The notes: generated from the sequence alone by a model not told the origin. A stretch of 64,000 nt of DNA from Trypanosoma brucei (GCA_000002445.1 CH464491.1:3808001-3872000), one strand, 5' to 3'. Shown: positions 5,071-52,242, numbered from the stretch's first letter. Made by a program: numbers and translations.

Positions 5071-6960
5071 ATGTCACTAAACCCTAACGCTCCTCCATGG
5101 AATGTTCCTGATCACAATATGGACCACGGCATGGACCCGCATGGTCGTCACGGGCACCAAGACCCCCGGTTTCACAATTTCAGCGGTTACTATCCTCAGC
5201 ACATGCCCATGCACCAAATGCAAAGTGTGCAAAATATGGGAATGCCACGGTCTATGATGAATCACGGCTACAACCATCCAGCTGCTCATATACATCCCAT
5301 GCAACATAGTGCGCCACCCGGTCAGGCGTTCCACCAGGGGCGAGCGCGAGGTCAGGCTTATCTTGGTGGACACGTGAACGCAATGCCCGCCGTTCCCGCG
5401 CCATCATATAGGAAACAGCACATTGTGGTGGTGGTGGTGCTCGGTTACAGGTGCGTAGGGAAAACAACTGTTGCCCGACAAATAGCAAAGGTACGCAACT
5501 ATCGGTACGTCTCCCTGAAACCTAGTGAAGATGCCGGTAGCGTTTCGCCAGAGGCATTCGTGGCGCCGGTGGTGGAACTTTTGGCCAGTAAGAATTCATA
5601 TGAAGGTATAGTCATTGATGACATTGTGTCACAGAATAAGTACGACCCCTACTACGTACAGTCTGTGTTGCAGAAACACGGACTCAAGCTGGATGTTGTG
5701 GTTTTATTGGACAGTGAGTTGGACAATGCAAAGGAAGGCGTGGATTATGAAGATCCGCAGCAGCGGAAGCTGCATCCAGAGAGCTACGAGTTCTGTGCGT
5801 GTCACCTCAATGGTGGAAATGCCGTTGTAGTGGAATGTCGCGGGAAGGATCTCGACGAAACAGTTGCTGAAGCAATGCGACAACTGAATGATGTGAACAT
5901 TGTGAAGGAATCAACTATTACGCTAAAGGAGGTTGCGCTAATGCCCAACTGCCCACTGGTGTGCAACCCATCAATGGTGACAGAGGTATTGGCGGCGCAA
6001 AGTGGAGTGTTAGGCCTTGCTGAGTCTGCTTCCTTTCCCTTCTCGGAACCTAATTACCTGTTAGAGTATACCATATTCGCGCGTCAGGCGCACGCGTTCC
6101 GAAGCTATATGATCATTCCATGGATCAAAGGCGATAAGGTGTCACTCATTGGTTACAAAGATGCTATTTATTTGCACCTTCCAGCATATAATATACTATT
6201 TCAACTTAATGATAGCCCAACTGCACTAACGCACCTACTCAAAGAGACAACTGCAACGGGCGGATTGGCCTTCATATTCGAGGCCACTTTTGCCGCAAAT
6301 AAACTACACGTATCCGACTTACTCCTGTTGGGTGGCATGAAAGGATCCGAAATGCTGGTAAATGAACGTGTGGATTTGTTGAAGGAGAAACTTGGTGAAT
6401 TGAGGGAAGGTGCTGTGCAGCTGCTTCCCTGGTACCCTGTAAAGGATATGGAGATGTGCAAGAAGGAAAATCCAGAAGCAGATGGCATACTTTTCGTAAA
6501 TCCTGACGGTATTCAAGTTGGAGAGTACGACAGTCGAAACTATCTGTACCCGCTGCACAGGAAGAAAACAGTAGAACTTCGCATATGGAATGGTAATTTC
6601 ACTGGAGGGGTGTGGACATTCGATGCATACTGTGAGGAGGTGGGTACTGAGAAACTTGTCGAAGGCATTCCTGTGCACATCAATGATGATGTTGTGACTG
6701 AATACTGCATCAATGATGGTAACATTTTGGAGTGCACTCGAGAAGAGCAAAGTGTCGGAACAAATAAAGCACGCAAAGGGGGGAAACACTACGTGTTCAA
6801 GAGCCGTTGTCAGTGGGCTTCCAAGCCAACGACAACATACAAACAGGAATGCTTTGTTAATGAACCCAAGTGGCCATCAGACCGGCTAGCACAGGCGTGT
6901 GCTGCGATTACTTACACTCCCGCTGTGCGACGGGAAGTGCAGAATGAAGCTTCTGGGTAA
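5071..6960 (+). CDS. Capping-enzyme (CE1) paralogue with P-loop domain and degenerate guanylyltransferase motif I; His/Met-rich N-terminus
   Basis: 629 aa. P-loop 'GYRCVGKTT' and downstream block 'YEGIVIDDIVSQNKYDPYYVQSVLQKHGLKLDVVVLLD' parallel CE1 'YNGVVLDRFIANSEFEAFYVQTALRSVGLPVPFVFMLAID'. C-terminal 'EADGILFVNPDG', 'LHRKKT' and 'GGVWTFDAY' parallel CE1 motifs IV and V and 'NGVWTFDLF'. The motif I position reads 'KLHVSDLLLLGG' rather than KxDG. Confidence 0.6.
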   Translation: MSLNPNAPPWNVPDHNMDHGMDPHGRHGHQDPRFHNFSGYYPQHMPMHQMQSVQNMGMPRSMMNHGYNHPAAHIHPMQHSAPPGQAFHQGRARGQAYLGGHVNAMPAVPAPSYRKQHIVVVVVLGYRCVGKTTVARQIAKVRNYRYVSLKPSEDAGSVSPEAFVAPVVELLASKNSYEGIVIDDIVSQNKYDPYYVQSVLQKHGLKLDVVVLLDSELDNAKEGVDYEDPQQRKLHPESYEFCACHLNGGNAVVVECRGKDLDETVAEAMRQLNDVNIVKESTITLKEVALMPNCPLVCNPSMVTEVLAAQSGVLGLAESASFPFSEPNYLLEYTIFARQAHAFRSYMIIPWIKGDKVSLIGYKDAIYLHLPAYNILFQLNDSPTALTHLLKETTATGGLAFIFEATFAANKLHVSDLLLLGGMKGSEMLVNERVDLLKEKLGELREGAVQLLPWYPVKDMEMCKKENPEADGILFVNPDGIQVGEYDSRNYLYPLHRKKTVELRIWNGNFTGGVWTFDAYCEEVGTEKLVEGIPVHINDDVVTEYCINDGNILECTREEQSVGTNKARKGGKHYVFKSRCQWASKPTTTYKQECFVNEPKWPSDRLAQACAAITYTPAVRREVQNEASG

Positions 6961-7884
6961 TAGACGCTGGTATGAACATGAAAAGAAGAAAAAGGTGGGG
7001 AAGGGAGAGAAGGAAGAAAGGGAATGTCAGGGAGAAAATACGGAAAAGAAAAAGGAAAAGAAGGAGAGTCAGACTAACAAAGAAGAGGAGTAAGGGAAAG
7101 AAGGACCGCGTATTTGAGGCATTCCCCGTTATTTTTAAATGTTGTTATTACTATTATCTGTTCTGACCTTCAAGTTGGGTTGTGCAGGTGGCGAATCTTT
7201 GGCGTTACTGTTTCTTCACGATGGTGGTACAGGGAGCATGTGCCTCCTTTCAGTGTCATCTCGTTTTCTTTTTTTTTTTGTCTTTCGTCCAGAAACGATC
7301 AGACCAAAGCATTTATAGCAACCAGTGAACTAATGGTGCTTGCGTTAACATCACCTGCGGAGAAATGTGCATCTACTCGTGTAAATCTGAGTTTACATCA
7401 CGGAGACAAAATCCGACTGCCAGAAGCAGCAGCATACAAAACAGTGCACTGTACAAAATCGTGCAATGGGAGAAGTCTTCAAGTTGTACCGCGCACGCGG
7501 TGGTGTAACTCCATTCAGAATTGGAGCAAATTTCGGTGGTGGGCACGCTGATAATTTCAATCGACTTCCACTGTTCCTCATAAATGGCGTGAAAATTTTA
7601 TTTAACGAAGTGGAGTGGTGAAAAAGAGGCTACGTAGCCACTTGCAACAGATGGTGTTCCGGTAAGAGAAACAAGGTTAAGGTAAAACCGTTGCCAAAAC
7701 TGGCGAACCGAAATTTGACCGCTTCTTCCTTCTCGTTGGCGCTCAATAGTGGTAACAAGGTGCTTGGTACTGGAGCGCAGGGGAAAGCGGGTTTTGCGGT
7801 TTAACTCCCGTGGCACATGTACCAAAATAATGATAACAATAATAATAATAATAGTCGTGAGCTCTGCGCGGAAAGGCCACTGTT

Positions 7885-7922
7885 GTGTGTGAGTGAGTGA
7901 GTGAGTGTGTGTGTGTGTGTGT
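7885..7922. repeat. (GAGT)n and (GT)n compound microsatellite
   Basis: 'gtgtgtgagtgagtgagtgagtgtgtgtgtgtgtgtgt' in the gene-free gap. A similar (GT)n followed by a G10 run lies at 9361-9390. Confidence 0.9.
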
Positions 7923-10900
7923 AATAACTGTCAATGAAGCTTCCAAATGAGCAACGTACTCATGGCAGGTCCGTCAGTTGCACCGATGCATTAATCTTGG
8001 GAAGTTCGGGTACACTATAGGTGCGAAACTCCAGGTTCCCGGCGCATAAAAATTCAAATGCAATGTAATCCACATGGCGTCTACGGCTCCTGGACGACAC
8101 ATAAGCAGTTGCGTTTGTGAAAGTTGCACTTGAGGTCATATGTGGAAATTTGGGGTTCTATGGGCATTCTCCGTTAATGGAATTCGAATTAATAAAAATG
8201 ATGCTTTTGAACGTCGTTTCCAAGCGGAGGCCTCAAAGGCGAGGACAAAAAGAAAAAAACAGTGGAAAAACATAACGTTGGACTGAGGGTTGGTTCTGTT
8301 GATTTAAAAAAAATCGGTCAAACGCTTCATTTCGGACCAACAGCTGTCATAGGCCTTCCGGAAGGAGCCGCATCGTGGCTGGTGAGAACAAACGGGTTTG
8401 GCGTGTGTTCCTCCGCTGTAACTCCAAATGTTAGCGCTTCGTTAAGTAACATGGGGGGAATATGCATTTTCAGGTGCGTAAATTAACTTACGTGGAACTT
8501 GCTGTTTTTTGTTACTACATATCTCAGTTATTTGCAGTATGTCCAACACAATACATGTCTTCACAGTGGCGAATAGTCTGCCCAGACACGCTGACAGTTG
8601 ACGCTGAAGGTAAGGCGCGTAAAGGTATGGCAGTATTGTGTGAATTCATGCAACATCAACATTGATACGTTGTGCCGGATGGCTCTGTTATCTACCGAAG
8701 TCCGCGTATGGTTCACAAAAAAAAATATTGGGAGTAGTTTTGTGGAAAGACATTTCAAGCTGCTTGATTTCCCACTTCCTCGTGACTGTGAAGGTGGCGG
8801 TAATTCAAAAGAAAATCATACTGCGGAGGCACTGGAGATTACAATTATTTTGCTGCGTTTAAACACCTGCACAGAGCATGTGCATAAGTTTATTTTCATT
8901 GAGAACAGCGACTTTGGGTGCAAGGGGATCGCTGCGTTGGTTACCGTTGGCTAACCCACTGCGTCTCTTCCTCCACATCTTTTTCAATGAATTCTTTTAC
9001 GTTTTCAGCACTTGCTTTTGCTCTTATTGTTTTCGCTGCGTTTCCGAAATCCAAAAGGAGTGCCGCCGACGCTACGAAGAAAAAATTATATCAAAAAAGA
9101 CATCTTGAATAATGTCTAATGATAATGGGGGTACAATTTTCAGGCATATTTATGAGAGAACTTCCCGTTTGCACCTATTCTCGTTTCGTTACTTTCCACC
9201 GCGGCCGGCATAGCACAGAGGGCAACCTCTCGTCGTGCCTTCATTTTCTCTCTTCAATATTTCATGGAAACAATTGTTTCGTTAAACTGTCGGTACAAAT
9301 AGTTCGTTGGCGTCACCGAACAATGAGCACATGAATTTAAAAAATAAATAAACTATCGGTGTGCGTGTGTGTGTGTGTGTGGGGGGGGGGAAGTGCCTAA
9401 TGTAGAAATCGTTACCTTCTGTCGGTCAGTGAATGTGTAAGTGCTCTGTGCCATAATACCTCGTTGCACATTTTTAAGAGTCAAAGTAAATATTGTATTG
9501 GCGTGGGGGGGAACGTGTAAATTAACGGAGAGACAACACAACGAAGTCTCCGCTGCTAACGACTTTGGAAGCAAACGTATTATCGTAAAATTGCGGTAAC
9601 GCTATACTGCAGGTGAGAGAAATGTAAAGGATATGCGCGCTGGTCGAGTGTCCAACATGGGTGGAATACAAGTTACGTGTACGAAATAAACAAAAACACA
9701 TGTGACCTAAATTATATAGATTAAGAGGATGAAGTACAGGAAAGTCTTGAAGGAAACAATAACTCGTGGTCCTAACTCCCTTTCTTTTGAGATGCAGCAG
9801 GAAGACAATTACCTGTGTGTTGTTTGTGTAAAGGTGGAATGGGAAAGAGTTATGAGGGAAGAGCTGTGGATGCTGAGCAAGAGGAGTCGTGATGTAAAGC
9901 TAAGAGGAATGGTTGGAATTGAAATGGGATCGAGTGTGAATAAGGTGATGGTTGCGTTTTGTCTGGTACGGATCTCAGATGGCAATGACATATTTTGTAA
10001 TGTGGTTGAATATGAATAAATAAGCAAAAGGAAAGTTGGACAGAAACTCCCCCTTTAACATCTTCCATTAAAGGATGGAAGAATGTGGTTTTCAATCGTT
10101 AATTTTTAATAATGCTAGTTTCGTGGAGAAAGGGTAATGATTTCTCGGATGCAAAGGCCGATATTTTCAGACGGAGGAGAACAGAAATTGATGGAGTGTT
10201 ATATCGCATGAATGAGTAACAAAATATTTATCTTTACTACGGGGATGCAATATTTGTGTGTATTTATTCAAATTCTTATTTACTACACACACCGAGAAGT
10301 GGAGAACATCTCATTACAAATAGTTGGGTGCTCTACAGGGACTCATCTTCTGGAGTCTCAAAGTGGTTTGGGTTCGCCAGTATGAGTGAGCAATGGGAAG
10401 GTAAAGGTAAGTTGAAGAAATAGGTTCATTTATCGGCAAACAGGATGTAAAGGGACACTGTAAGCGTACGAATAGCTGTTTATTTGATTGTCTTTGGTAA
10501 TGTGTATATTTTATGATGACTGACAAAAAGGTTGTGTGTCACCCCTTGTGACTGCGGCGGGAGGGGCGCAAGGGGTAATCTATTGTTTTTGGTTGAGTGC
10601 TAACTGATGGTAGTGTGATGTTTCTCGCTGCGGTGCGGGGGGTAATATCCAGGTTAATGAGTGTGGGTCCACAACATCGAAGGCAGAACCTATTCCTACG
10701 CTGCTTTCCAATGCGTCAAAGCTCTGCAAACAAAACCGGCAATCCTCTCCCACCCAACCTCGCGGAGCCGCATGCTGTAATCAAATCCGCTTGCAAACTG
10801 CAGCAACCACTTTGTACAATTTTTTTTTTCCTGCGTCCCATGTGATAACTGTCGCATAAACGAGGGGTAGCGGCCAGCGCTACACATACCCACATTATGT

Positions 10901-10942
10901 ATGCATTTGCCTACCGTTTCAGTCATTTGTATTTCTATAGAC

Positions 10943-12154
10943 ATGCTTGCAACAGTAGTTTTGTTTGTTGTGGCATTGGGAGTTAGCGTCGGTGATATAA
11001 ACGCCGAGAGGGCGGCGCTGAAGTTGAAGGTAGCTCAAGGGGTTTGTGCAGCAACGAAGGCGCTGAAGTCAGTTCACAGATACACGGTAGAAAAGGTGAA
11101 GGAGGCTGAGGGAAAATTGGAAGATGTACAGAATATGGTGAAACTGGCGAAACTCAAGGTGCTGAGGGAAAAAAAGGCTGGTAGTGTCGATTGCAGAACG
11201 ATGGCGTTTTTCCTCAACTATACAGTGAAGAAGGTGTCCGGTATGATAGAGTTACTTCCGAAAATTAGGGAGCAGGGTTTAAATCTCACGGCGTCAGCGG
11301 GTATAGCTGCAGGGAGATTGGAAGAAATGATAAATGTATTTCACCAACCATCTGACAGGCAGGAGAGTGATATCTTTTTCTGCATTGCAGGTAAACAAGG
11401 TGAAGGAGTTACAAAAAGCGAATTGGCTGACTGCTTCAAGGGTGGGAGGGATGCGATTGACTCTTCCCATTTTGTGGCCTTTGGTGATGCCGAGGCAACG
11501 AAGGGTTGGCAAGATATTTTCAAGGAGAAGGACGGGCTGGAGGGAGCATTGAAGAAACATCTAACAGTGGACGACAACGACCCTAGGTTTACGAGGGGGG
11601 AGGGACGCGGATGTCAGTTGGTACACGGAATGCAGGGAGGGGGATATATCAAGGATGCGAACTTCACGGAGCACATGCTATGGGGGGATGGTATACTTGG
11701 GGTGAAGAAAGATGGAAATGGAACGACTGGATATGTAGGAAGCACGAGGGGTAGCGACTACGATCACGATATTCTTTGGGAGAAGGATCCAACGGCGAGT
11801 GTCCCCAGTCTTCACGCAACCGTAAGTGATTACCACTCTTTCAGTGGTTTGCTGCACAAGTATGACACCATTTACCGCAGTGTTACAGAGGAGTGGACTG
11901 CAGATTTAATCCAGAGAGATCCCGAGGCTACTGATTTGCTAACCGCATCGGAGCTCACCGTCGAGGACGTTGCTGCACTCAACAGCCGCACGAAGCAGGA
12001 GTGGCTTTCCCAGAAACACGCCAAGGAAGCGGACAAGGAGTTTCTAATGACAGAGATACGATTTTGCGGGAAACTGAAACGAAGGGGATTCATCAGACGA
12101 ATGGTGAAGAAGATCCTTGGCGGACTTCGTATAAGTTGGACATCGGAGGGTTAG
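10943..12154 (+). CDS. Secreted/GPI-anchored surface glycoprotein, ESAG6/7-PAG-like (VSG a-type-like), array member 1
   Basis: Signal peptide 'MLATVVLFVVALGVSVG' (ORF opens at 10901; the Met at 10943 starts the hydrophobic leader). Many NxS/T sequons and long heptad helices. Motifs 'AGIAAGRLEEMINVF' and 'WGDGILGVKKDGNGTTG'. Hydrophobic C-terminal GPI-type signal. Confidence 0.6.
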   Translation: MLATVVLFVVALGVSVGDINAERAALKLKVAQGVCAATKALKSVHRYTVEKVKEAEGKLEDVQNMVKLAKLKVLREKKAGSVDCRTMAFFLNYTVKKVSGMIELLPKIREQGLNLTASAGIAAGRLEEMINVFHQPSDRQESDIFFCIAGKQGEGVTKSELADCFKGGRDAIDSSHFVAFGDAEATKGWQDIFKEKDGLEGALKKHLTVDDNDPRFTRGEGRGCQLVHGMQGGGYIKDANFTEHMLWGDGILGVKKDGNGTTGYVGSTRGSDYDHDILWEKDPTASVPSLHATVSDYHSFSGLLHKYDTIYRSVTEEWTADLIQRDPEATDLLTASELTVEDVAALNSRTKQEWLSQKHAKEADKEFLMTEIRFCGKLKRRGFIRRMVKKILGGLRISWTSEG

Positions 12155-12284
12155 CAGTTTGTTTTGTGTGTGTCAACAGTTCTTTATTTGCAAATACGGA
12201 GGTTTGTACTGACTTCTTTGTCAATGGGTATTCGTGCAGGTGTACGTGTAGTGCTGTCTCTTTATTCCTGAAGTTATTGCCATT

Positions 12285-13394
12285 ATGAGGTTCATGCTAA
12301 GGTTAGTTATGTTGCTTGGTGTCCCCGTTGTATTTGCGGATGTGGCTACTATTGATAACAAACCACTGTCTAACAAAACAGTAGAGAGCATTTGTGATTT
12401 GTCAAAGATGTTGAAATTTGGGGTTCGTGCTTATGTCCTCAGTAAGACAAGGGAAGTGGAAGAGAAGTTGAAAGAGGTGACAATAGTAGGGAATTATGCG
12501 AAGCTGAAGATGCTGACGGGTAATTTAAGTGGCTTTGAGTGCGCCCAAAAGAAAATATACGTTACACATACACTGGAAACGAAAAGGGCAAGGATCAGTG
12601 ATTTGTTTAGGGACATGTGGAGCACAGGGGCGAAGCTGGTAGGCTCGTCAGGTCTTGTAGCAGGGAGGTTGGACGAGTTGGTAAATGTGTTTGCAAGTGC
12701 ATGGGCGAACGAAAGTCATTACTGTGCCCAAGGCTTTAAAAAAATTGTTACTTGCAATACATCAAAAGATAGTAGTGTGTCCTTAGAAGATTTTGACCGC
12801 AAGGGTCTAGCAAGTATTGTGGATGAAACACTCAGCATTAACAGCGATGAAGTGTTAGAAAACAAGAGCACTAGTTGCCTGCTAACTCAGGGGTTCAATG
12901 GGGGAGGATATCTGAAATACTCAAACAGCCAAGATCAAACTAAGAGTTCCGGACTGAAAAGGAATCTTGTTTGGGGTGACGGAATATTTGGTATCAGGAG
13001 AGACGGAAATGGTAGTACCTCGTCTCAAGGTATTGTTTCTAGTGCAGAGTATCCGACGGATGTCATGTGGGAGCACCAGCCATCAAAAATGATTCCCATT
13101 ATCAAATCGACAGTGAAAGATTTTGTAGACTTTCAAAAAGGCTTTAAGGAAATTGGCGTTGAGTTGAGGGCCCTTTTTAAGGAGTTGAAAGCGAAGGGTA
13201 TGATGACCACTGTGGCTGACAGTGATATTGCCGACAGTGATCAGCAGCTACTGAACCACAATTTCAAGATGTGCGGGAAGTTTTCTGTTGGAAAGGGAGA
13301 TTATTTTAAAGGGAGTGGGGTAGTGGGTCATACCACGTTGGGTGGAAACTGCATGCGTGCTGTTTTTTTTGTATTCTCTGTGGTATTGTGGTAA
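12285..13394 (+). CDS. Secreted/GPI-anchored surface glycoprotein, same sub-family as member 1, array member 2
   Basis: Signal peptide 'MRFMLRLVMLLGVPVVFA'. Motifs 'GLVAGRLDELVNVF' and 'WGDGIFGIRRDGNGSTS' are paralogous to member 1. C-terminal 'GGNCMRAVFFVFSVVLW' is a GPI-signal-like tail. Confidence 0.6.
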   Translation: MRFMLRLVMLLGVPVVFADVATIDNKPLSNKTVESICDLSKMLKFGVRAYVLSKTREVEEKLKEVTIVGNYAKLKMLTGNLSGFECAQKKIYVTHTLETKRARISDLFRDMWSTGAKLVGSSGLVAGRLDELVNVFASAWANESHYCAQGFKKIVTCNTSKDSSVSLEDFDRKGLASIVDETLSINSDEVLENKSTSCLLTQGFNGGGYLKYSNSQDQTKSSGLKRNLVWGDGIFGIRRDGNGSTSSQGIVSSAEYPTDVMWEHQPSKMIPIIKSTVKDFVDFQKGFKEIGVELRALFKELKAKGMMTTVADSDIADSDQQLLNHNFKMCGKFSVGKGDYFKGSGVVGHTTLGGNCMRAVFFVFSVVLW

Positions 13395-13495
13395 CTGCAA
13401 TTCTAATGAGTGCTCTCCTTTTTGTTGTATGGAAACACTTATTCTGCTTACGCGATCCAAATATTTCTCATAAACTTTTAATTTTTAAAGTGAGA

Positions 13496-14872
13496 ATGGA
13501 AAAGCTTGGAATATTGCTTTTGGCTACCACTACGTTTGTAGTTGGGACAACTACGGAAAATAAGGAAAACCTCCGCAATCAGCAAGAATTTAATCAACTA
13601 TGCAGGATTTTGAGACTTGTGGAAGGGGATCCAGGACAAGTCGTTAAGGAGCCTCCAAACTTGGGAATCCTCATAGAAGTGCTCCAAAAAATGGTGAAGG
13701 CAACCTTTGTAAAGGAGTCGTCTTACCAAGAAGCAGTTGATGCAAGGGAAAAATGGAAGAGCACAGACAGTACGGTCGAAACAAAGAATATTATGGATAA
13801 GCAACGTGCGGATGATTTGGTGAGGTATAAGATTACACACGAGAAACTCAAGAAACTCCTCGCGAAAGCCAAGATGCTGGTGAGCAGGATCAAGGAGGAA
13901 AGGTACTTGGCATATGTATCGAGGAATGCTGCACTAGAGAAGATGGCGAAAGTTGTATATGGAAGCAGCGCAGAAAAAATGTTCAGGAATGAAACTGAAT
14001 TTGAAAAGTTTTTGGCCAATTCACAAGGCACAATAGTGGGTAAAACGGCCAAGGAGACATGTGGGATGTCAAATGATAAAATGAAGAATGTAAGTTTTGC
14101 GGGTTACTCACTGGTTGGAGACTTTTTCTGCTTGTGTGTTGGTGAAAATAATAATGCCACGCTATGCGACAAAAGCTTCAGTGGACCCAGGGAGGAGCAT
14201 AAGTGGACAAAAGTGATGTTTGAGGACAAACTTGTTGACTTTGCTGCTGGTTGGTTTAAGATAAGAGGTTTGTGTTATGTCAATGCCACGAGTGGAATAA
14301 AGGATGTGGTAACTCCAGAAAATATTAGCACGGAGATTGTAGCCTTCAACAAGATGCTTGGAAGACAGCGGGATGATGTTCAAATTTATCGAAGAGAAGC
14401 CGAATCATATCGACAGTACATTCTTGGGAGGGTTGAGCAAGTAGGATTTACTGACAGTGCAATATGCACTGGAGAGCACCAGCATATGTGTGTAAATTAC
14501 GCACAATGCTTGGTCTCGAATAAAGGTATTCCATGGCAACTCAAGCTAATGGAGGCAGAGGAGGATCTAGAGGATGTGGAAAAACATAACATGGAGGTGC
14601 ATGTGCTAATTGGGAGGTTGGATAAACTCATTGAGAAAATCAAGAAAGCAGCAGAGCAACTCAGTCAAGAGATGGAAGGAATTGATGTTGCAGTTGAGAA
14701 GGTTCAGTTGCTGGAGGAAGAGATCGAAGAAAATGAAACCACGGGAAAAAGTGAGGCAACCGCAGGAGAGTTTAATGATAATGCGCAACCTGAGGAGGGG
14801 AGTTTAGATAAATGTGAATATTGGGGTATGTTTTCTATTTTGTTCGGGGTTGTAGCATTTAGCCTCGTGTAA
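13496..14872 (+). CDS. Secreted/GPI-anchored surface glycoprotein, second sub-family, array member 3
   Basis: ORF opens at 13388 overlapping the previous gene. The Met at 13496 begins signal peptide 'MEKLGILLLATTTFVVG'. Motifs 'DFFCLCVGE' and 'CTGEHQHMCVNYAQCLVSNKGIPWQ', then an acidic coiled-coil stalk. C-terminal 'WGMFSILFGVVAFSLV'. Confidence 0.6.
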   Translation: MEKLGILLLATTTFVVGTTTENKENLRNQQEFNQLCRILRLVEGDPGQVVKEPPNLGILIEVLQKMVKATFVKESSYQEAVDAREKWKSTDSTVETKNIMDKQRADDLVRYKITHEKLKKLLAKAKMLVSRIKEERYLAYVSRNAALEKMAKVVYGSSAEKMFRNETEFEKFLANSQGTIVGKTAKETCGMSNDKMKNVSFAGYSLVGDFFCLCVGENNNATLCDKSFSGPREEHKWTKVMFEDKLVDFAAGWFKIRGLCYVNATSGIKDVVTPENISTEIVAFNKMLGRQRDDVQIYRREAESYRQYILGRVEQVGFTDSAICTGEHQHMCVNYAQCLVSNKGIPWQLKLMEAEEDLEDVEKHNMEVHVLIGRLDKLIEKIKKAAEQLSQEMEGIDVAVEKVQLLEEEIEENETTGKSEATAGEFNDNAQPEEGSLDKCEYWGMFSILFGVVAFSLV

Positions 14873-15006
14873 TGTTTTTGTTTGACGTTGGTGTTATGGT
14901 GATGAATCTCTTTGTTTGACCTGACTGATTAAGGCGAAAATAACGCTGCTGATAACTTTGTACCTCCCTTTTCCACCTTTTACCTCTTAAGATATAAACA
15001 ACAACA

Positions 15007-16374
15007 ATGAGGAGTGAAATAGTGCTTGTTGTTGGGTTGTTTTTAACTGTTTTATTCTCTTCTCCACAGGGTGATTTGGCTGGATATAAATGGAGCACAG
15101 AATCTATTAACTGGAGTGCGATTACGAAACTCATTGGAGTCAATGACGAGTACCATAACGCTGGCGAGTTCGAAGCTCTTTGCAAGATTTACAGAATCAC
15201 GCAGGCAGAAGCCCCGCAGCCTTTCTTTAAGAATCGTGAGAGGGAAGGTGAGATTGTGAAGAAGTTGCAGGAAATGATCAGTGAGACGGAGGCTGCGGGT
15301 GGTAATAAAGTTTTGAATAAATCAGCTAACAGCACAACAGCATATCAGGAGATAAAGAAACTTCTTGAAAAGGCGAAAAAGCTGAAGGAAGAAATAGAAG
15401 TCAACAGGACAAAAGCCTTGAATGCAAGTCGCTCTGCTGAAGAAAATATGCTGAGGGCTGTGTATGGCGATGCTGTGGATGTGGCAAGAAATGGGAATAA
15501 AACATTGGAGGAGGCCATGAGGGGAAACAAGTCACTGCTGTTCAATAGTGTTGATGATGCAGGTACAAGTTGTGGTTCTTACGGAGAGAAGCTGGTTGGC
15601 AAGACACTAATCAATGACTTTTTCTGCCTATGTGTGGGAGAGGCTAAGAACGTGAAAATAAAGCAAAATCTTCTGCACCCCGGGCATGTCACACCTTATG
15701 ACGGTGTGTATAATGGATACAATTGTCCCTGCAAGGATGAAATAAGGAGACCGAAAAGCGGCAGTTGGACTATGATGGCTGAATATTGTAAAGGTGGCGA
15801 AGACATTTGTAACCCTGACAACGTAACATATGACCATACTGAAGCATGGGACGTGATCAGTAAAGCTTGTGTATACAAAAATGTTGCATCTAATGTAAAA
15901 ACCTTGAAGAGTGCACTGGCTCAGTTTGATGCGTTGTTGAATTTGGAACAGGATGAGTATCAAGTCAGGGGTATTTTTGGTTATGTTAGAACGGAAAATA
16001 ACGAAAATCGCACGTGCACAGGTCACACTGCTGGGTTTACATGTGTCAGTTACAATCACACACTTGAAAATGGTGGAATTCCTTGGTACAACCGCCTTAC
16101 TAATGCTACCGAGCAACTACAAGAAATGGCAAAGTATGCCAAAGAAGCTGACAGTCATCTTCATGAATTGGAAGAGTACCAACATGAGGCAGAGGAAATA
16201 TTTCTTGAGGTGAAACTTGGTGGTGATGCAGAGCTGTGGAAAAATAGCCGAGCTCAAGGTGAAAGTGACAGTGAAGGTTATGATACTGGGGTAAATAATG
16301 ATGGACTTACTCATTTGAATGTGGAAACTGGGGGGTTTACATTATTAATTTTATCTCTTATTTGTATCTTTTAG
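15007..16374 (+). CDS. Secreted/GPI-anchored surface glycoprotein, second sub-family, array member 4
   Basis: Signal peptide 'MRSEIVLVVGLFLTVLFSS'. Shares 'NDFFCLCVGEAKN' and 'CTGHTAGFTCVSYNHTLENGGIPWY' with member 3. C-terminal 'GGFTLLILSLICIF'. Confidence 0.6.
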   Translation: MRSEIVLVVGLFLTVLFSSPQGDLAGYKWSTESINWSAITKLIGVNDEYHNAGEFEALCKIYRITQAEAPQPFFKNREREGEIVKKLQEMISETEAAGGNKVLNKSANSTTAYQEIKKLLEKAKKLKEEIEVNRTKALNASRSAEENMLRAVYGDAVDVARNGNKTLEEAMRGNKSLLFNSVDDAGTSCGSYGEKLVGKTLINDFFCLCVGEAKNVKIKQNLLHPGHVTPYDGVYNGYNCPCKDEIRRPKSGSWTMMAEYCKGGEDICNPDNVTYDHTEAWDVISKACVYKNVASNVKTLKSALAQFDALLNLEQDEYQVRGIFGYVRTENNENRTCTGHTAGFTCVSYNHTLENGGIPWYNRLTNATEQLQEMAKYAKEADSHLHELEEYQHEAEEIFLEVKLGGDAELWKNSRAQGESDSEGYDTGVNNDGLTHLNVETGGFTLLILSLICIF

Positions 16375-16576
16375 TTTGATTCTATGCCACCAACTATATT
16401 ATGTTATGCCATGTTTTTTTATTTCGTTTCTTTGTTGTGTTTGAAATGATATGGTGCATGCATATATGCATATACATGACTGCATCACTGTGTATTTGTG
16501 TTTTTCTCACGATATGAAACTGTATTAATTACCCTTTAGATATTTTCTTCTCTCATTTAGATAAACAATAAAGGAA

Positions 16577-17707
16577 ATGTCTCTGTTTATTGCAGCGGTG
16601 TATTTGACAGCGTTGACCGTGGTTGAGGTGGTCATGGGGAAGCATGCTGGTAAGGCCATGACTGAGAAGGATGCCGAGACATTGTGTAATCTTAGCTATG
16701 CTTTGAGGGTTGTGAGCGCTGACATTCAAAGAAAGCAAAAAGATGCGACTGCAAAGGTGGATGAAGTGCGAGAGTGGCGGCACCGGCATGGTGTAAAGGG
16801 GAGGACATGGAAAGCAATAGTACAGGGTTTGGAGAAGATAAGGGTTGTTAATGAAAGTTACATGGAAGGTATAAAGAAAACATATGGGGAAATGGAAAAG
16901 ATAATGAACGGTACGGATAGTGCCCTTTTGATAATGGATACTAGTTTTTTAAGCATTGTGAGAGTGTCCTATCATGTTGTGAATGCGTCAGAATCTATTG
17001 GACAGGTATTGAGGGATCTGGTGGTGATGTTTGAGAAAACGAAGGATGAAAAAGATAGTTGGTGCTGTTTGGTGAAAGGTAAAGAAGCGTTGAGTGGCGA
17101 AGGATGTGGAAATGGTGGGGATGGTAATGATCAGAAATACAAAGTGGTTGGTATACCCGAAAAATGTAAGACATCTGTTACTGTGAATACAACGAGCGAA
17201 GGAATAATGACATTACTAAAAGAACATGAGAGAAGTCAAGAAATCGAATTTACAACTAATGAGAGACCGAATTGCTGGATCATGGGTACGGAAAAAGTTG
17301 CTAATGGAGGAGCTGGATCTTTCATAGTGGGAGCTACTGGAGGCTTTGTTACGTACCGTAACGGCGATGCTGTTACTCTGAGATCTCAGAATATGATACC
17401 CGAACTCATCAAGAACTACACCTTAGTTAGAAAGGGATATGAAAGTATCAAGGACAAATACAATAAGTTAAAACCAAATTTTGGACCTTTTGATGAACAC
17501 GAAAACCAACTAAAAGAATTGTTAACTCAGAGCCCGATGGTACGTAGGTATTTCAAGGAGAGTGGGAAGAAGCGCAAGGGAGGTGAGGATGATGATGATG
17601 TAATAGATGATGAAGGATCCTCCATGAGAAAACAATGGGCGGCAGCAGGCGTAATCTCTCGCTGCAGTTCTAGTTTTGTAGCTTTATCATTTTGCACGGT
17701 ATTGTAG
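16577..17707 (+). CDS. Secreted/GPI-anchored surface glycoprotein, divergent array member 5
   Basis: Signal peptide 'MSLFIAAVYLTALTVVEVV'. N-glycosylation sequons. Cys pair 'WCCLVKG' at a position analogous to 'FFCIAGK' in member 1. Acidic stretch, then hydrophobic tail 'SSFVALSFCTVL'. Confidence 0.55.
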   Translation: MSLFIAAVYLTALTVVEVVMGKHAGKAMTEKDAETLCNLSYALRVVSADIQRKQKDATAKVDEVREWRHRHGVKGRTWKAIVQGLEKIRVVNESYMEGIKKTYGEMEKIMNGTDSALLIMDTSFLSIVRVSYHVVNASESIGQVLRDLVVMFEKTKDEKDSWCCLVKGKEALSGEGCGNGGDGNDQKYKVVGIPEKCKTSVTVNTTSEGIMTLLKEHERSQEIEFTTNERPNCWIMGTEKVANGGAGSFIVGATGGFVTYRNGDAVTLRSQNMIPELIKNYTLVRKGYESIKDKYNKLKPNFGPFDEHENQLKELLTQSPMVRRYFKESGKKRKGGEDDDDVIDDEGSSMRKQWAAAGVISRCSSSFVALSFCTVL

Positions 17708-19772
17708 GCAACAGTTTTATTATTGGGATTATTCACTTTTTGTATATTATGTTTGTGTGTGATGAAATTGTGGCTCTTCCTCCGCTTGATAAACTGATGT
17801 AGCGTAGTGCAGATGATGATGCACCTCGCGGTGAAGTTAGCAATCTTAACCCGTTTTTTTTTTGCAGTATTGAGGCAGAATACGTTGAGTGCTTTTCTAT
17901 TAATGTTGAAGAAGTTGATAGAGTGCTCGAGTCCATATGTTATCTTAGTTGCCTTTCGAGCACATTAAACAGGTTGTACACCGATGGTGAGCAGGAGCTG
18001 TTTGTGAACGAGGAGGTGCACGCAAATGTGTCTCGTATAGTAGGGGCGATATGGAAGGGGAAAGCAAGTTCGAGCACGGAACAGCGTGGTGTTATTAGCG
18101 GTGCAGTGGAAGAACGTACCGAAATAAGCTGGAATACCTCACATCATATGGGAATGGAATGGGAAATCTTTCGGAGAAAATTGGTGGATTATTCGCTAAA
18201 GTTAGTGACGGTGTAGGTGAGTGGGGAATCTACTACCTTGCACCTCCTGCACGCAATTAAATGTTATACGGCCATTGCGGATGTAGTTAGTACGATATGG
18301 AATGATGTTGTGGTGAAGCATGGATCCTCAATATGGATAAATGCAAACATCAAGTTTGAAGGACGAGTGTGATTACCAAACGTGTCCATTAGGATGTGGC
18401 GTCAGGAAAAGTGCTCTTAGAAAAAAAAAGGAAGGGAGGCTGCTCTTGTGTGGTGCAAGCAAGTGCCCGATGCCACGGATAAATTTAGACGCTTGTGGGG
18501 TTATGAACAACCCAAGTAATGTTCTGAAATGGAAAGACAGTCGTTTCTTCTTTCCAACGACGGATGTCCGTGATGTCTTCACTCCCCTCATCGTTTCTTC
18601 TGCTAGTCAACTACCTTCGAGACTCTCGGATATGATCGCAAATGTAACTTCCTTCCACTCACACTTCAACGAAACCCGCAGTAAGTTTATGTCACGTACC
18701 CACGACACTCTCCTTGTCACCGCGGGTAGAGATTCCGCTTTTAACAATCACGCATGTACGAGTTATCTCCTCTGCTCGTAACATTCCCACATTGATACCT
18801 CTGCGTGCGTGTTTTCTTTTTCTACTGTTATGTCCTCATGAGCCCCTTTTAATTCTGTGGTAAGGGCAATATTTCAAACACGTATGTGTGGCCGTGGGTG
18901 TTACTTTTTGTGTCAGGAATCACGATTGCTACGCGTTGCATTTGCTCCGAGACCGCCGACGCGGTTAATAACTTGTGCGACCAACTTGAGTTCGGGTGTG
19001 AGCGCTCGCTTTTGTGACGAGTGCGCGGCGGCCTTAATGTTGCAATCGTGATGTGATTCGGGTTAAAATGAGGTATCGAGTGGCGTGAGATGCAGCGATA
19101 CCGCATGCTATCGGTAATGGTGCAAGAGATAGAGGTTACTTAAGCTTATACTTGAGCCTAAACAATGCACTTGACGGTTTGTCAAACGCGTCACCACGCG
19201 TGCGCCTATCGTTGTGCTTTTTTTTTTTTTAGTAGAAGGGCGCGCATGTCATGAATGACTCACGCGATTTTTTTCTTCATAAAAAGAGGGTGGACGATAC
19301 CGCAACGGCCGGTTGGGAAAAGCCGCTCATTGCAGAGTGCGGCTCTATAATAAGTTCACGCATGTGAATGTTGCGTGTTGTGAGGAGGAACCCAACTCCC
19401 TCTCGTGTCGTTGTGGCCCCGTTTCTATGAGAAATTCATCCCCTGAAAGTGTGTTTGTGTGTGGGAAAAGCAAGCAATGACTGGGAGTTGATCAGTAAAC
19501 AAGCTGTGGCTAACTGAGCCCCAAAGTTCCACTTCGTTGCGCGGTTAACCCCAGTGAAAGGAAAGCAGCGGGCAACAATCGTCGGAAAACGGGATGCATC
19601 TGCAGAACGCGATAACTGGCGAGAAAACGTTTTTTTTTTTTAAATCCAAGCTCGCAGGCAGTTAATGTAAAAGCAACTTAAAAAGAACTAAGAGCCCAAA
19701 GTAAGGATTATAACAGGACGGGTAAAAAAATAAATAAATAAATAAACGCGTTAAAGTTAACCGGTAAAAGGG
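17708..19772. other. Convergent strand-switch region between plus- and minus-strand gene clusters (probable Pol II termination zone)
   Basis: All supported genes upstream are on the plus strand and all downstream ones on the minus strand. Only short unsupported ORFs fall in this 2 kb interval. T-runs at about 19210-19230 and 19621-19635, and (AAAT)n at 19725-19750. Confidence 0.6.
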
Positions 19773-22700
19773 TTACCACCATCCTCTGTGTACCGTAGTG
19801 TGGCGGACAACACCTCTCCTAATGGATGGATCAACGACTCCGTTATGTGATGTATATCCTCCAAACTCTGTGGGACGTGCCCTCCGGAGTGGCGAGGGTT
19901 CAGCTCGCGGCACTTCCCCAAAACATGCCACGCTCCCTCCAAGCGGCAACTGAGGTGCGCTGCCATGAGCAAATGCCCCGGACGCATTTGCGACACACCG
20001 CGGGCCCCACGTGAAGGGGGCGAAGCACTCGGCTTTTGAGAAAGTGCTTTGGCGATAGGCATCAACGCCGACGTGTGACAACTGGCGGCCGGAAGTGGCA
20101 GCATTTGTTGTCACCCGAAGTTGGTGCACGACTCCCGTGCGGTGCGGAGGGGTGCTGGCGTGTGGACATTCAAAAATGCTCCGCTGAAAAGTGGGATGGC
20201 CAGTGGAATACGTAGCAGGAGGCGTTGTGTGAGGAAAGAGTGGCGAGACACCAGACTCTATTGTGTTAACTATGGGATGTGTCGCTGCTGCGCGTGTATC
20301 CCCATAGCATCCTTGGTAATGGGCGTGCCTTCCAACCGTTGTATAAGGGGAAACGCCTTGTACATTAAAACGAAACCGTTTTGATGGGCGCGCGCCGCCA
20401 CGTCCAACATCTGTTACGGGGTTTGGAGGAGGCGACAGGGTTTTGGGAAGGACGACTTCCATTCCACCAAGCAGCATGTCGTCCCCTTCCTTGCACGATA
20501 TTTGTGGGCTCCACCGTGTTTCTGGTGAGTCACCAGATCCGTTTTCTTTGTTCTCCCGACGTCTCTTGTAGCCAAATGGAGATGACACTACCCTGATTCC
20601 CATGGAAGACGCTATCTGAGCCTTCCGCTCTAACAAATACTTGAATGCCTCGTCCGTTTGACCAGCTTCAGTATCCCGTCGCCTACTGCTTTCCGAGTCC
20701 GCCATTTTCGTCTTGACGACAGTTGCCTCGTCATCGCAGCCGACAGCGGCCGAATGAGCCCCCCGTTCAGCACTGGTTGTGCCAATCTCCCCTCCTTCAA
20801 GATCCGAAGCGCACTGATCGGCAATAACACTCGTGTCCCCTCTCACTTGATGCGGTGTCGTGACGAAGGGTTCGGTTGATCGCCGGTTGTGTGGCACGGG
20901 CTCATTTATGCTGTCGCGGTCGGCGTTCCGATCGGTAACCTTCACGTCGTCTGGCGTCTTCTTCAGGGTGCCTTGCATTTTTTCCGCAGTGGTTCGATGC
21001 TTTGGCTGCTGCGCGAATCCGGTCGCTGTTTGCAGCTTTACCGAATCGCCCGCTTCGACGCCGCCCACCTTCAGTGTGGCGTTGCAGTCGTTCCCGAGAA
21101 AGTTCCCGTTGGTGAGGCTCCCCATAATTTGTCCCCGATACCCGGGGGAAACCTGGAAGGTGAAAACGAGCGGCCTCCGATTGGCGGTCCTGCAATCGAT
21201 CTGACGAAGAAGGTGTGTACGATCAAGTTCGAGATCCCCAACAAGCAGTATCATATGGCACTGCTCTAGTGGAGGATCTCTTCGTGTGGAGACGCCCGCC
21301 TTATAGGAGACTACGACACGCACGGTGCCGGCTTCCGTAACATGCTCAAGCGCTAAGTTGTACATTGGACGCGAGTGGCACTTTTCCTGGAGATCTGTCC
21401 CGAATGGGGGATTCTTACCGCATAGAGCCTCCAACTTTCTTGGGTTGGCTTGCAGCACGTCAGAAAAGTTCTTTATTCCACCTTCATGGAGCGCCTTCGC
21501 CATGTTTTCACCAATTCCCTCAATTTGCTTAATGATGAGTCCATCCCACCAAGTGCCCTGTTCAATACACCTGCAAAGAAGTGAGCTCTGTTGGATGAGG
21601 GAAAAGCATGGATGGGTTGTGGCGTAGTCGACGACAAAGCGAGCGACGCGTGGGGCTACCGTCCACAGGCGCACGCAATCGTTCCTGAGCGAAAAATCCG
21701 ATACCGCCACTCGATCAAGATGGGCCTGGATGAGCACATACACTTTGTGCCAATCTTCCCTCACCTCACGCCCGCCGCGCATTCCACAGTTGAGCGGGAA
21801 TCGGATAACTTTGTTGAGCTCGTTAAGGTGCTTCTTATCCCCTTGCCGCAGTCGAAGACCGTCAAATTCGCTGGAGTGGCAAAAAACACGGAGGACTTGG
21901 TGCAGAGTGAAGGACTCACCTGTTTTTTGTTGAATTTGCCCTTCCTCCTCTGCCATTGCCGCGCCCATTATTTGAGGTGCTCCCTGCCGACCGCTCTGAT
22001 GGGAAAACCGGTGCAGTAACTCTCTGTTGAGTGTTTCAACCGTTTTGAAGAGAATATACCGACGTGCCATGGCGCGTCCTACGCGAGTACTCTCTACGGC
22101 GCAATTCACATCGCTTACATCACGGCAGCCGGTGCTGCTGGGTGACCTGTCCTGGAGGGTTTGTGTAGCTGACTCATTCAAAATGACATCCCCTGCCTTT
22201 AGTGCATCGCGGCCGATCGCGACACAGCCTTGTTTTTCAAGTTCGGCTAACATCCTCCGCATCAGTTGATCCGCGAACTGTTCTCGGTCAAAATCGTCTT
22301 CCTCTTGTTTGGTAGAGAAAATAATGCCGTAGCGGCGTGGGCAGCGTCGAAGCCGGATCCAAAAAAAAGTTGTTTTGATCCACTCCACACCAAGTGATAA
22401 GTTGTGAATAGTTCGCAGGGCCACCTCTGCATTCACATGTTCAATCATGTTCTGGTGCAGGCGACTCTCTACGGTTGTGCACGTGTCTCCGTGTTGCAAT
22501 GGTTTGTACAGGTACGCCTTGTCATCCGTTGTGAGCACAAGTGCGACGCCGTGCGTGTCGAGTCCTGGTCGTCCAGCGCGACCGCTCATTTGTGCAATTT
22601 CCGAAAGGGGAAGGTCGTCACGGTTACCATTCTTGAAGAACGTTGTGCCCTTGACGATCACAAGGTGTGCGGGAAGGTTGACGCCCAGTGCCAGGGTTGT

Positions 22701-23864: not shown

Positions 23865-24288
23865 CAGCACAACCGCCTGAGGGGTGTTTGTGGGAAGGCG
23901 GCTATTCAACACAAATCCAAGAAGTGAATAAATGAAAAGTGAGCAATAAAATTTTAGAAGGATATACTCCACTGGAACACAGAGAGAGCGATAAACCATT
24001 AGGTCGTAATTGTATCAACAGCAGTGGGCATCGTGATGCCGCCCATGGCTTCCGCGGCAGACCACATGAAACCAAATATGCATTCCTGCATATTTTTTTT
24101 TACTACCACCAGAGCCACCACGTTTATTCGTACACCGCGCCAACTGTTGTAATACTGGCAGTTGGGGAATAAGCACTTTTCCATCACGCGCAAACATTTC
24201 CCTCTGCAGTGGAGGCAGATGCAATAGGATTGGCACAGGCAGTCAAGGGCGTCAAAACCAGCAAACACAATCTTTCCATCGTGCATCT

Positions 24289-51969: not shown

Positions 51970-52211
51970 AAAAAAGAAAAGAAAAGAAGATGCTGTTCAT
52001 TCAACAAACAACACCTTTGGCACCGAGCCTTAGGATAATACTGACCAATCACCATCAGAAAGGAAACTAATCACAACTGTAAGACGTGTTTACTAATAAA
52101 AGAGATTAATGGCCAAACGATAATCAGTAGACTGTTTTCCTCTTCAACTACTTCCGAACGCCTCCACGACTAATCGTTGTAAAACCGTAATTAAAGACTA
52201 GACACGCCACA

Positions 52212-52237
<26 letters not shown>
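52212..52237. repeat. (AT)n microsatellite in low-complexity gene desert
   Basis: 'atatatatatatatatatatatatat'. Further (AT)n runs at 53209-53230 and 4815-4833. Confidence 0.9.

Positions 52238-52242
<5 letters not shown>

Follow-up and report, generated by a model that had tools for sequence, protein, structure and literature searches.

A composite cluster of PAG-type and ESAG-type surface-protein genes at a convergent strand switch on chromosome 11 of Trypanosoma brucei

Architecture of the cluster

The window analyzed here is a stretch of 64,000 nucleotides from chromosome 11 of Trypanosoma brucei brucei TREU927 (GCA_000002445.1 CH464491.1:3808001-3872000), and all positions are counted from its first letter. 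Between positions 10943 and 17707, it carries an array of five consecutive plus-strand open reading frames (ORFs) of 369-458 aa, ORF1 to ORF5, as a first-pass annotation made from the sequence alone had described them. Four of the five match database proteins exactly and over their full length, namely EAN80404 (ORF1, when read from a start at 10901), EAN80405 (ORF2), EAN80407 (ORF4), and EAN80408 (ORF5), and orthologues that are at least 90% identical exist in T. b. gambiense, T. equiperdum, and T. b. equiperdum. The first-pass annotation implied that this could be a new, distinct internal locus for surface proteins. It is not new: annotation of the genes dates back to the TREU927 genome, and they were published as "differentially expressed gene cluster 1," consisting of five contiguous genes (PAG2-like, PAG4, ESAG2, ESAG2, and ESAG11) that lie 12-203 bp apart at a convergent strand switch in the interior of chromosome 11 (Veitch et al. 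2010, PMC2837033). The old gene identifiers Tb11.01.6210-6250 and the gene names used herein follow Table 2 of that article. The current identifiers Tb927.11.14600 (ORF1) and Tb927.11.14610 (ORF2) are tabulated in the supplement of Gadelha et al. 2015 (PMC4587319); by the run of the numbering, Tb927.11.14620,.14630, and.14640 would be ORF3, ORF4, and ORF5. To the account of Veitch et al., the present analysis adds an ESAG1 pseudogene, the GPI-minus character of ORF1 (GPI, glycosylphosphatidylinositol), the synteny with T. vivax and T. cruzi, the dispersed module to which part of the array belongs, the colinearity with expression sites, and estimates of selection.

ORF1 (10943-12154; Tb11.01.6210/Tb927.11.14600, PAG2-like) encodes 403 aa with 4 N-x-S/T sequons and 6 cysteines and is annotated from 10901 with 417 aa. 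ORF2 (12285-13394; Tb11.01.6220/Tb927.11.14610, "PAG4, putative") encodes 369 aa with 6 sequons and 7 cysteines. These two are followed by ORF3 (13496-14872; Tb11.01.6230, ESAG2-type; 458 aa, 6 sequons, and 10 cysteines), which is annotated from 13406 with 488 aa, by ORF4 (15007-16374; Tb11.01.6240, ESAG2-like; 455 aa, 11 sequons, and 12 cysteines), and by ORF5 (16577-17707; Tb11.01.6250, ESAG11 family; 376 aa, 6 sequons, and 8 cysteines). The multiple N-glycosylation sequons and cysteines that had been noted for all members are hence present, with 4-11 sequons and 6-12 cysteines per protein. The same holds for the short spacers of about 100-200 nt, which measure 130, 101, 134, and 202 nt from ORF1-ORF2 to ORF4-ORF5.

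Signal peptides and GPI signals were called from hydropathy. The N termini are hydrophobic in all five proteins (best 12-residue Kyte-Doolittle window 2.2-3.2). The mean hydropathy of the last 15 residues is +1.3 to +2.3 in ORF2-5 and -0.24 in ORF1. A signal peptide and a GPI-like tail had been ascribed to every member; the former is found in five of five, the latter in ORF2-5 and not in ORF1. The array comprises four GPI-type proteins and one GPI-minus protein, ORF1.

The five genes had also been taken as one array of related members. When compared with each other by BLASTP, ORF1 and ORF2 are 26% identical and ORF3 and ORF4 23%, with all other pairs being undetectable. Since only these two pairs are linked, the cluster is a mixture of three families, and a single paralogous tandem array of five members is ruled out. 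In family searches (BLASTP and profile models), ORF1-5 all match PAG, ESAG, or VSG families at levels well above chance. On sequence grounds, ORF1-4 are placed in the VSG/three-helix-bundle class of surface proteins, and ORF5 likely belongs there as well, as judged from a structure model of moderate confidence. The earlier reading is supported in its core: ESAG6/7-PAG-like and VSG-like genes form a chromosome-internal cluster where a housekeeping unit ends, next to a convergent strand switch.

Most start codons are preceded at a short distance by a pyrimidine tract and an AG; a search of the ORF1-ORF2 spacer for pyrimidine tracts of at least 8 nt found none. 5′ of ORF1, a polypyrimidine tract (10820-10832) and a subsequent AG (10863) likely mark its splice-acceptor region. 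For ORF3, the annotated start at 13406 leaves 11-12 nt from the ORF2 stop codon, and a canonical signal peptide starts at the ATG at 13496. Counted from 13406, the protein has 7 sequons, which is the figure in the published table. A pyrimidine tract (13413-13423) and an AG (13489) fall within the annotated extension (13406-13495), which makes 13496 the likelier start. The annotated start, and hence the published intergenic distance of "12 bp," is probably an artefact. As to ORF1, the annotated start at 10901 puts 14 residues before the canonical signal peptide, and the N terminus of PAG2 aligns by eye with the ORF1 methionine at 10943.

The PAG-type pair ORF1 and ORF2

Both ORF1 and ORF2 match the Pfam family of A-type VSGs (PF00913, Trypan_glycop) with scores that exceed the gathering score (E=8.3e-13 and E=1.2e-9, respectively). 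Against the solved transferrin-receptor subunits in the PDB (6soy), ORF1 matches ESAG7 with E=1e-17 and ORF2 matches ESAG6 with E=5e-12; over both proteins and both subunits, the matches span E=1e-17 to 2e-10. The motif G(I/L)(A/V)AGRL(E/D)E...NVF, pointed out earlier as GIAAGRLEE/GLVAGRLDE...NVF, is shared by the two proteins and aligns with ESAG6, in which the corresponding stretch reads GLAAGRLEEWIFVF. The proposed membership of the pair in the ESAG6/7-PAG lineage of A-type-VSG-like proteins agrees with these Pfam and PDB matches and with its PAG relatives.

Within this lineage, ORF1 and ORF2 score far lower against ESAG6/7 than against PAGs. The closest relatives of ORF1 are PAG2 (49% identity) and a PAG1-type protein (44%). 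ORF2 is 38-40% identical to PAG4 (best E=8e-67), and when 1.84 billion representatives were scanned exhaustively with ORF2 by HMMER, only 15 proteins were returned. Ten of their names were checked, and all are T. brucei PAGs or T. congolense proteins named "Transferrin receptor-like, PAG-like." PAG4 ranks first, followed by the T. congolense proteins and then by PAG1. An unnamed representative of 399 aa, which is probably ESAG6, shows 26% identity to ORF2 (E=5e-8). These comparisons place ORF1 and ORF2 in the PAG clade, that is, Fam14 of Jackson et al. 2013, and outside of the ESAG6/7 clade Fam15. The term "procyclin-associated" is a misnomer for both, which are PAG members by sequence only.

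The C terminus of ORF1 reads ...CGKLKRRGFIRRMVKKILGGLRISWTSEG; its last 35 residues are basic and amphipathic and contain no hydrophobic tail. A basic tail of clear homology is also found at the C termini of PAG2 and a PAG1-type protein, which is why the ORF1 tail is regarded as a family trait and its origin as a frameshift artefact is ruled out. Judged by hydropathy, ORF1 and ORF2 form a tandem pair of a GPI-minus and a GPI-plus protein. Such tandem pairs are described as a hallmark of the transferrin receptor lineage by Jackson et al. 2013, who define the PAGs as Fam14, mark the presence or absence of GPI on their tree, and state that transferrin-binding positions are kept in PAGs. By analogy, ORF1 and ORF2 may form an ESAG7/ESAG6-like heterodimer that would be tethered via the GPI anchor of ORF2, and this heterodimer may act as a receptor for a host ligand.

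The ESAG2-type and ESAG11 genes ORF3, ORF4, and ORF5

ORF3 and ORF4 match the Pfam family VSG_B with E=1.5e-51 and E=4.8e-27, respectively, and contain no further significant domain. They are classed as ESAG2-type, b-VSG-like proteins bearing a predicted signal peptide as well as a predicted GPI-type tail, lacking the canonical C-terminal domain of VSGs. The name ESAG2 is taken from database names and from the identity of ORF4 to ESAG2-like neighbors of ESAG11; ORF4 is 70-80% identical to ESAG2-like genes 5′ of ESAG11 on other chromosomes.

ORF5 matches no Pfam family. Ten ESAG11 proteins, Q9Y021 among them, share 60-66% identity with it across 96% of its length. Its AlphaFold2 model has a mean pLDDT (predicted local distance difference test) of 59.8, with three long core helices at 70-93. 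In a Foldseek search with this model, the top 14 matches are all helical bundles of trypanosome surface proteins, comprising the transferrin receptor (TfR/ESAG6), the haptoglobin-haemoglobin receptor HpHbR, ISG65, the factor H receptor FHR, MISP, and GARP. The scores of these matches are weak (E=3e-4 to 8e-2; template-modeling score 0.26-0.38 normalized to the query and 0.29-0.62 to the target), and the fold assignment is therefore likely and not proven. An ISG-like, three-helix-bundle surface fold was proposed for ESAG11 by Jackson 2013. ORF3-5 would be GPI-anchored invariant surface proteins.

The ESAG1 pseudogene, the strand switch, and the upstream unit

ORF5 had been described as the last element before a convergent strand switch. 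The switch is confirmed, and ORF5 is not the last element, as an ESAG1-like pseudogene (17923-18781, plus strand), recognized by a Pfam profile and three-frame translation, lies between the two. Herein, the ORF at 18341-18781 matches ESAG1 (PF03238) with E=1.9e-22, and the ORF at 18217-18372, in another frame, matches an earlier part of the same profile with E=5.5e-4. The piece at 17923-18213 is 49% identical to ESAG1-like sequence 3′ of ESAG11 in T. equiperdum (L008). The element is disrupted by an in-frame stop codon at 18214-18216 and a frameshift at approximately 18340-18370, and it has neither an ATG nor a signal peptide; because of these features, it is classified as a pseudogene. The element of T. 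b. gambiense carries the same disruptions, and a 146-aa gene with a precomputed ESAG1 Pfam match follows right after the ESAG11-like gene in that subspecies. The high G-over-C skew of the array runs to approximately 18.5 kb, with the sign of the GC skew changing at about 18500.

The core of the strand switch (18782-19772) extends from the ESAG1 pseudogene to a DEAD/Sec63-type helicase gene (19773-23999, minus strand; Pfam DEAD, Sec63, and SNRNP200_wHTH), which is the last gene of the opposing unit and has an orthologue at the syntenic position in T. vivax. The switch is convergent, since all ORFs of at least 250 aa between 19773 and 64000 are on the minus strand. No tRNA gene was found at the switch, and no Rfam family reaches the gathering threshold in the whole window. 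The helicase gene of T. b. gambiense (L006, 13186-17411) cannot be aligned codon for codon with window positions 19773-23999; neither neighboring frame is open throughout in T. b. gambiense, which suggests an insertion, deletion, or frameshift in one of the assemblies. Further into the opposing unit, at 52000-54000, the window contains an AT-rich (GC 0.34), ORF-poor region of about 3 kb between minus-strand genes, with (AT)n and short A/T-rich tandem repeats.

On the upstream side, the array was said to lie directly downstream of capping-enzyme genes, which does not hold: a spacer of 3.9 kb intervenes, the nearest gene is that of G5-IP, and the capping-enzyme gene is located one position further up. 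The mRNA capping enzyme (2473-4233, plus strand) consists of a guanylyltransferase and an N-terminal P-loop domain (Pfam mRNA_cap_enzyme, E=4e-10, and mRNA_cap_C), and T. vivax and T. cruzi have its gene at the syntenic position. The gene of the EIF4G5-interacting protein G5-IP (5071-6960, plus strand; 100% identity to "G5-interacting protein") is the last conserved gene of the plus-strand unit. Its orthologues across Trypanosoma are 55-60% identical, and in T. vivax no further plus-strand gene lies between it and the strand switch. G5-IP, which the first-pass annotation had counted as a capping-enzyme gene, is a paralogue of the adjoining capping enzyme, with a tblastn cross-match of 23-32% identity.

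The spacer itself (6961-10900, plus strand) is ORF-free in that its longest ORF has 145 aa. Ten spacer ORFs have no Pfam match, on which ground degenerate remnants of ESAGs or retroelements are rejected. (TG)n or G-rich tracts occur at 7884-7922 and 9361-9389 in the spacer, on a strand with a persistent G-over-C skew; in a search of positions 1-24000 for tandem repeats, one (TG)n tract and no other repeat was found. Between T. b. brucei and T. b. gambiense, the spacer is 97.7% and the strand-switch region 98.2% identical.

The locus could in principle be the annotated procyclin/PAG locus. This is ruled out by the absence of procyclin ORFs, by G5-IP being the upstream gene, and by the absence of nucleotide similarity to the EP procyclin locus (L005) beyond the coding regions of the PAGs; the earlier statement that no procyclin genes lie upstream is hence correct, as G5-IP and the ORF-free spacer are found there. 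The array had furthermore been called nontelomeric and free of VSGs, 70-bp repeats, and other ESAGs. The former points hold, and the last one fails, given the ESAG2 and ESAG11 genes ORF3-5 and the ESAG1 pseudogene.

Origin and selection

The synteny comparison that had been proposed shows the array to be missing at the corresponding loci of T. vivax and T. cruzi. In T. vivax, LicD, the capping enzyme, and G5-IP are followed after about 1.4 kb by a convergent unit that ends in an unrelated 603-aa gene and the helicase; in T. cruzi, LicD, the capping enzyme, and G5-IP are followed by nonhomologous sequence. No homologue of an array protein was found at either syntenic locus at E<1e-3. Because both loci are devoid of homologues, the array is regarded as a lineage-specific addition at a conserved strand switch, which agrees with the remark of Veitch et al. 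2010 (PMC2837033) that other kinetoplastids lack synteny with these clusters.

The position of the strand switch carries different lineage-specific genes in T. vivax and T. cruzi. The 603-aa gene of T. vivax (L001, 13280-15091) has no Pfam match and no counterpart in the T. brucei window, and one T. cruzi strain contains a GP63 (Peptidase_M8) gene downstream of G5-IP (L003, 18257-19885).

The 3′ half of the array has relatives elsewhere in the genome. Positions 14988-17635, which include ORF4, the spacer, and ORF5, show 75-78% nucleotide identity over 2.65 kb to T. b. gambiense (L007) and T. equiperdum (L008) sequences from other chromosomes. In the latter, ESAG1-like sequence is located 3′ of ESAG11, and traces of an ORF3-like gene 5′. 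The cluster is a composite: a PAG-type pair and a dispersed ESAG2-ESAG2-ESAG11-ESAG1 block, inserted after G5-IP of a unit of the RNA polymerase II (Pol II) type.

ESAGs are reportedly arranged in the order 7, 6, 5, 4, 8, 3, 2, 11, and 1 in the bloodstream expression site. The order of the array (7-like, 6-like, 2, 2, 11, and 1) matches that of the telomeric site, in which ESAG7/6 are promoter-proximal (Jackson 2013). This match may reflect segmental transposition between expression sites and strand-switch regions of the chromosome core.

The five array genes have dN/dS values (ratio of nonsynonymous to synonymous substitution rates, T. b. brucei versus T. b. gambiense) of 0.27-0.37 with a dS of 0.028-0.085. 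The flanking 605-aa gene has a dN/dS of 0.56 with a dS of 0.009. All five have kept intact reading frames, and the array genes are fast-evolving and yet constrained by purifying selection. Their dS is 3-9x that of the flanking gene, for which gene conversion from paralogues is one possible cause.

Expression in published data

According to published data, the array is coordinately expressed in bloodstream forms and almost silent in procyclics. In T. b. gambiense, the genes are 41-90-fold upregulated in bloodstream compared with procyclic forms, as confirmed by reverse-transcription PCR (Veitch et al. 2010, PMC2837033). In T. b. brucei, all five are robustly upregulated in long slender forms compared with procyclics (Nilsson et al. 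2010, PMC2916883 Table S2), and a microarray study finds the two PAG-like genes upregulated in cultured bloodstream forms (Jensen et al. 2009, PMC2771046). On the protein level, ORF1, ORF2, and ORF3 were detected by mass spectrometry in preparations of surface-labeled bloodstream forms; of the five, only ORF2 is contained in the high-confidence surface set, with an enrichment of 243.9 and an assignment to Fam14 (Gadelha et al. 2015, PMC4587319). The same study places ESAG2 on the membrane of the cell body and an ESAG11 paralogue on both cell body and flagellum. The ORF3 protein was found in a published glycoprotein fraction as well.

Regulation

Transcription of the array would be accomplished by Pol II reading through from the upstream G5-IP unit, and the bloodstream specificity would be imposed on each mRNA individually, as for other chromosome-internal copies of ESAG2, ESAG11, and PAGs. 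This combination is favored because the bloodstream bias tracks these families wherever they are located: upregulation in bloodstream forms is also seen for the ESAG2 and ESAG11 copies of chromosomes 1 and 3 and for the PAG copies of chromosome 10 (PMC2837033, PMC2916883). It is further favored because no promoter similarity was found and because the array genes are not listed among the genes within 5 kb of Bdf3-bound (start-site-type) regions in the supplementary files of one study that were searched, which is a weak negative. Intergenic regions of 100-200 nt would leave room for very short untranslated regions (UTRs) only. A search for regulatory repeats common to the intergenic regions or the 3.9 kb spacer gave short matches at chance level, and the 16-mer of the VSG 3′ UTR was not found with 3 mismatches allowed.

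The long ORF-free spacer with its G/T-rich tracts 5′ of the array allows for a different explanation, namely, a self-contained mini expression site, in which a stage-specific promoter within the spacer, used by RNA polymerase I (Pol I) or as an unusual start of Pol II, drives all six elements as one unit in bloodstream forms only. Such a promoter would account for five genes with very short UTRs being coregulated 41-90-fold, and the match in gene order to the expression site fits as well, as does the fact that these families are normally transcribed by Pol I in expression sites or procyclin loci. Pol I was raised as a speculation by Veitch et al. 2010. No similarity to the promoters of procyclin or VSG expression sites was seen (PMC2837033). 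The upstream region of the EP locus shows no similarity either, later papers treat PAGs outside of procyclin loci as transcribed by Pol II, and ESAG2/ESAG11 modules elsewhere share the stage bias without having this spacer. With the weak Bdf3 negative also speaking against it, a mini expression site is considered very unlikely. A slim chance of the same order is given to its functional extension. Herein, the array would be a "core mini expression site" that is independently promoted or gated and colinear with the telomeric sites, ORF1 and ORF2 would constitute a second invariant ESAG7/6-like receptor for a nontransferrin or additional ligand, and the array would serve as the ancestral template or a stable back-up of the expression-site order.

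A second alternative is a gate on termination or elongation. In this case, Pol II could in principle enter the array in either stage but would be stopped in the spacer or in the PAG-like genes in procyclics, via chromatin or via a PAG-dependent terminator with H3.V-marked chromatin, and the whole block would be switched by termination. PAG-related sequences are found almost only at strand switches or changes of polymerase, with all annotated PAG-like genes being located at convergent strand switches (Haenni et al. 2009, PMC2731899). The inhibition of elongation by PAG1 sequences was shown for Pol I and not for Pol II (PMC2731899). Located upstream of or at the proposed block, ORF1 and ORF2 are regulated as strongly as ORF3-5 (PMC2837033), so a block inside the PAG genes is insufficient and would have to lie in the spacer instead. 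The array genes (Tb427tmp.01.62xx) are absent from a table of genes changed by H3.V knockout and/or loss of base J in bloodstream forms, and control by H3.V or base J is rejected on this basis. Base J is specific to bloodstream forms, whereas a J-dependent stop would need to act in procyclics. Taken as a whole, the gate is regarded as unlikely, and read-through by Pol II with control on each mRNA is retained as the favored explanation, with regulation being the weakest part of the account.

The account that is considered highly probable describes the locus as the known, composite, and lineage-specific cluster Tb11.01.6210-6250 together with an ESAG1 pseudogene, for which a heterodimer of ORF1 and ORF2, transcription by read-through, and segmental transposition are suggested. 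Several points weigh against it. Five adjacent genes with a similar 41-90-fold regulation and near-absent 3′ UTRs are explained at least as well by a transcriptional switch (Veitch et al., PMC2837033). PAG sequences can attenuate transcription, and the annotated PAG sites are all enriched in H3.V (Haenni et al. 2009, PMC2731899). 3′ of the PAG-like pair, spliced transcripts occur in bloodstream forms but not in procyclics, which could indicate stage-specific termination (Nilsson et al. 2010, PMC2916883). Regarding the proteins, the signal peptides and GPI signals were called from hydropathy alone, and the model of ORF5 has a mean pLDDT of only 59.8. The heterodimer is an analogy only, drawn from tail types, tandem order, and homology, and ORF1 as its GPI-minus partner is longer than ORF2, unlike ESAG7.

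As the genes are annotated and their coexpression in bloodstream forms was published in 2010, the locus carries little weight as a discovery. Its value is rather that of a compact test case for an approximately 50-fold stage switch of a gene block at the end of a constitutive polycistronic unit and for the role that invariant members of the VSG-fold superfamily other than VSGs play at the surface of bloodstream forms. The GPI-minus/GPI-plus pair of PAG type may plausibly constitute a second heterodimeric receptor, and the colinearity of the array with expression sites is relevant to the assembly of the latter.

Comparison with known systems

The telomeric bloodstream expression site shares the order of families and the bloodstream expression with the array. 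Unlike the expression site, the array contains neither ESAG3, 4, 5, and 8 nor a canonical VSG or a telomere, and it is located in the chromosome core with housekeeping genes on both flanks.

The chromosome-internal ESAG2-ESAG11(-ESAG1) modules, that is, the GRESAG clusters on chromosomes 1 and 3 and another chromosome, have the same gene order as the 3′ half of the array. In contrast to these modules, the version in the array is joined to a preceding PAG pair and includes one more ESAG2, the divergent ORF3. Frameshifts disrupt the ESAG2-like copies of the related T. b. gambiense and T. equiperdum sequences (L007 and L008) but not ORF4, which is intact.

The ESAG7 and ESAG6 genes of expression sites encode a fold that is homologous by sequence to ORF1 and ORF2, with the AAGRLEE..VF motif being kept. 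As in the array, they are arranged in tandem, the first gene lacking and the second having a GPI-type tail, and they are expressed in bloodstream forms. They differ in that ORF2 is only about 26% identical to ESAG6 of Fam15 and in the divergence within the pair: with a genetic distance of 0.114 (Jackson 2013), ESAG6 is almost the same as ESAG7, whereas ORF1 and ORF2 share 26% identity. Unlike ESAG7/ESAG6, the ORF1/ORF2 pair is neither telomeric nor promoter-proximal.

The closest paralogues of ORF1 and ORF2 are PAG2-PAG4 of the EP procyclin locus on chromosome 10, which is a Pol I unit. In T. b. gambiense, the EP locus (L005) consists of two EP procyclin genes, a PAG1/2-type gene with a basic tail, and PAG4 with a hydrophobic tail 116 nt later, followed by a convergent strand switch. 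PAG2-PAG4 thus resemble ORF1-ORF2 in the succession of a GPI-minus and a GPI-plus protein, in a spacing of approximately 115-130 nt, and in their position next to a convergent strand switch. Unlike at the EP locus, neither procyclin genes nor their promoter precede ORF1, and the stage specificity is opposite, with ORF1 and ORF2 being expressed in bloodstream forms and PAG2-PAG4 of the EP locus in procyclics.

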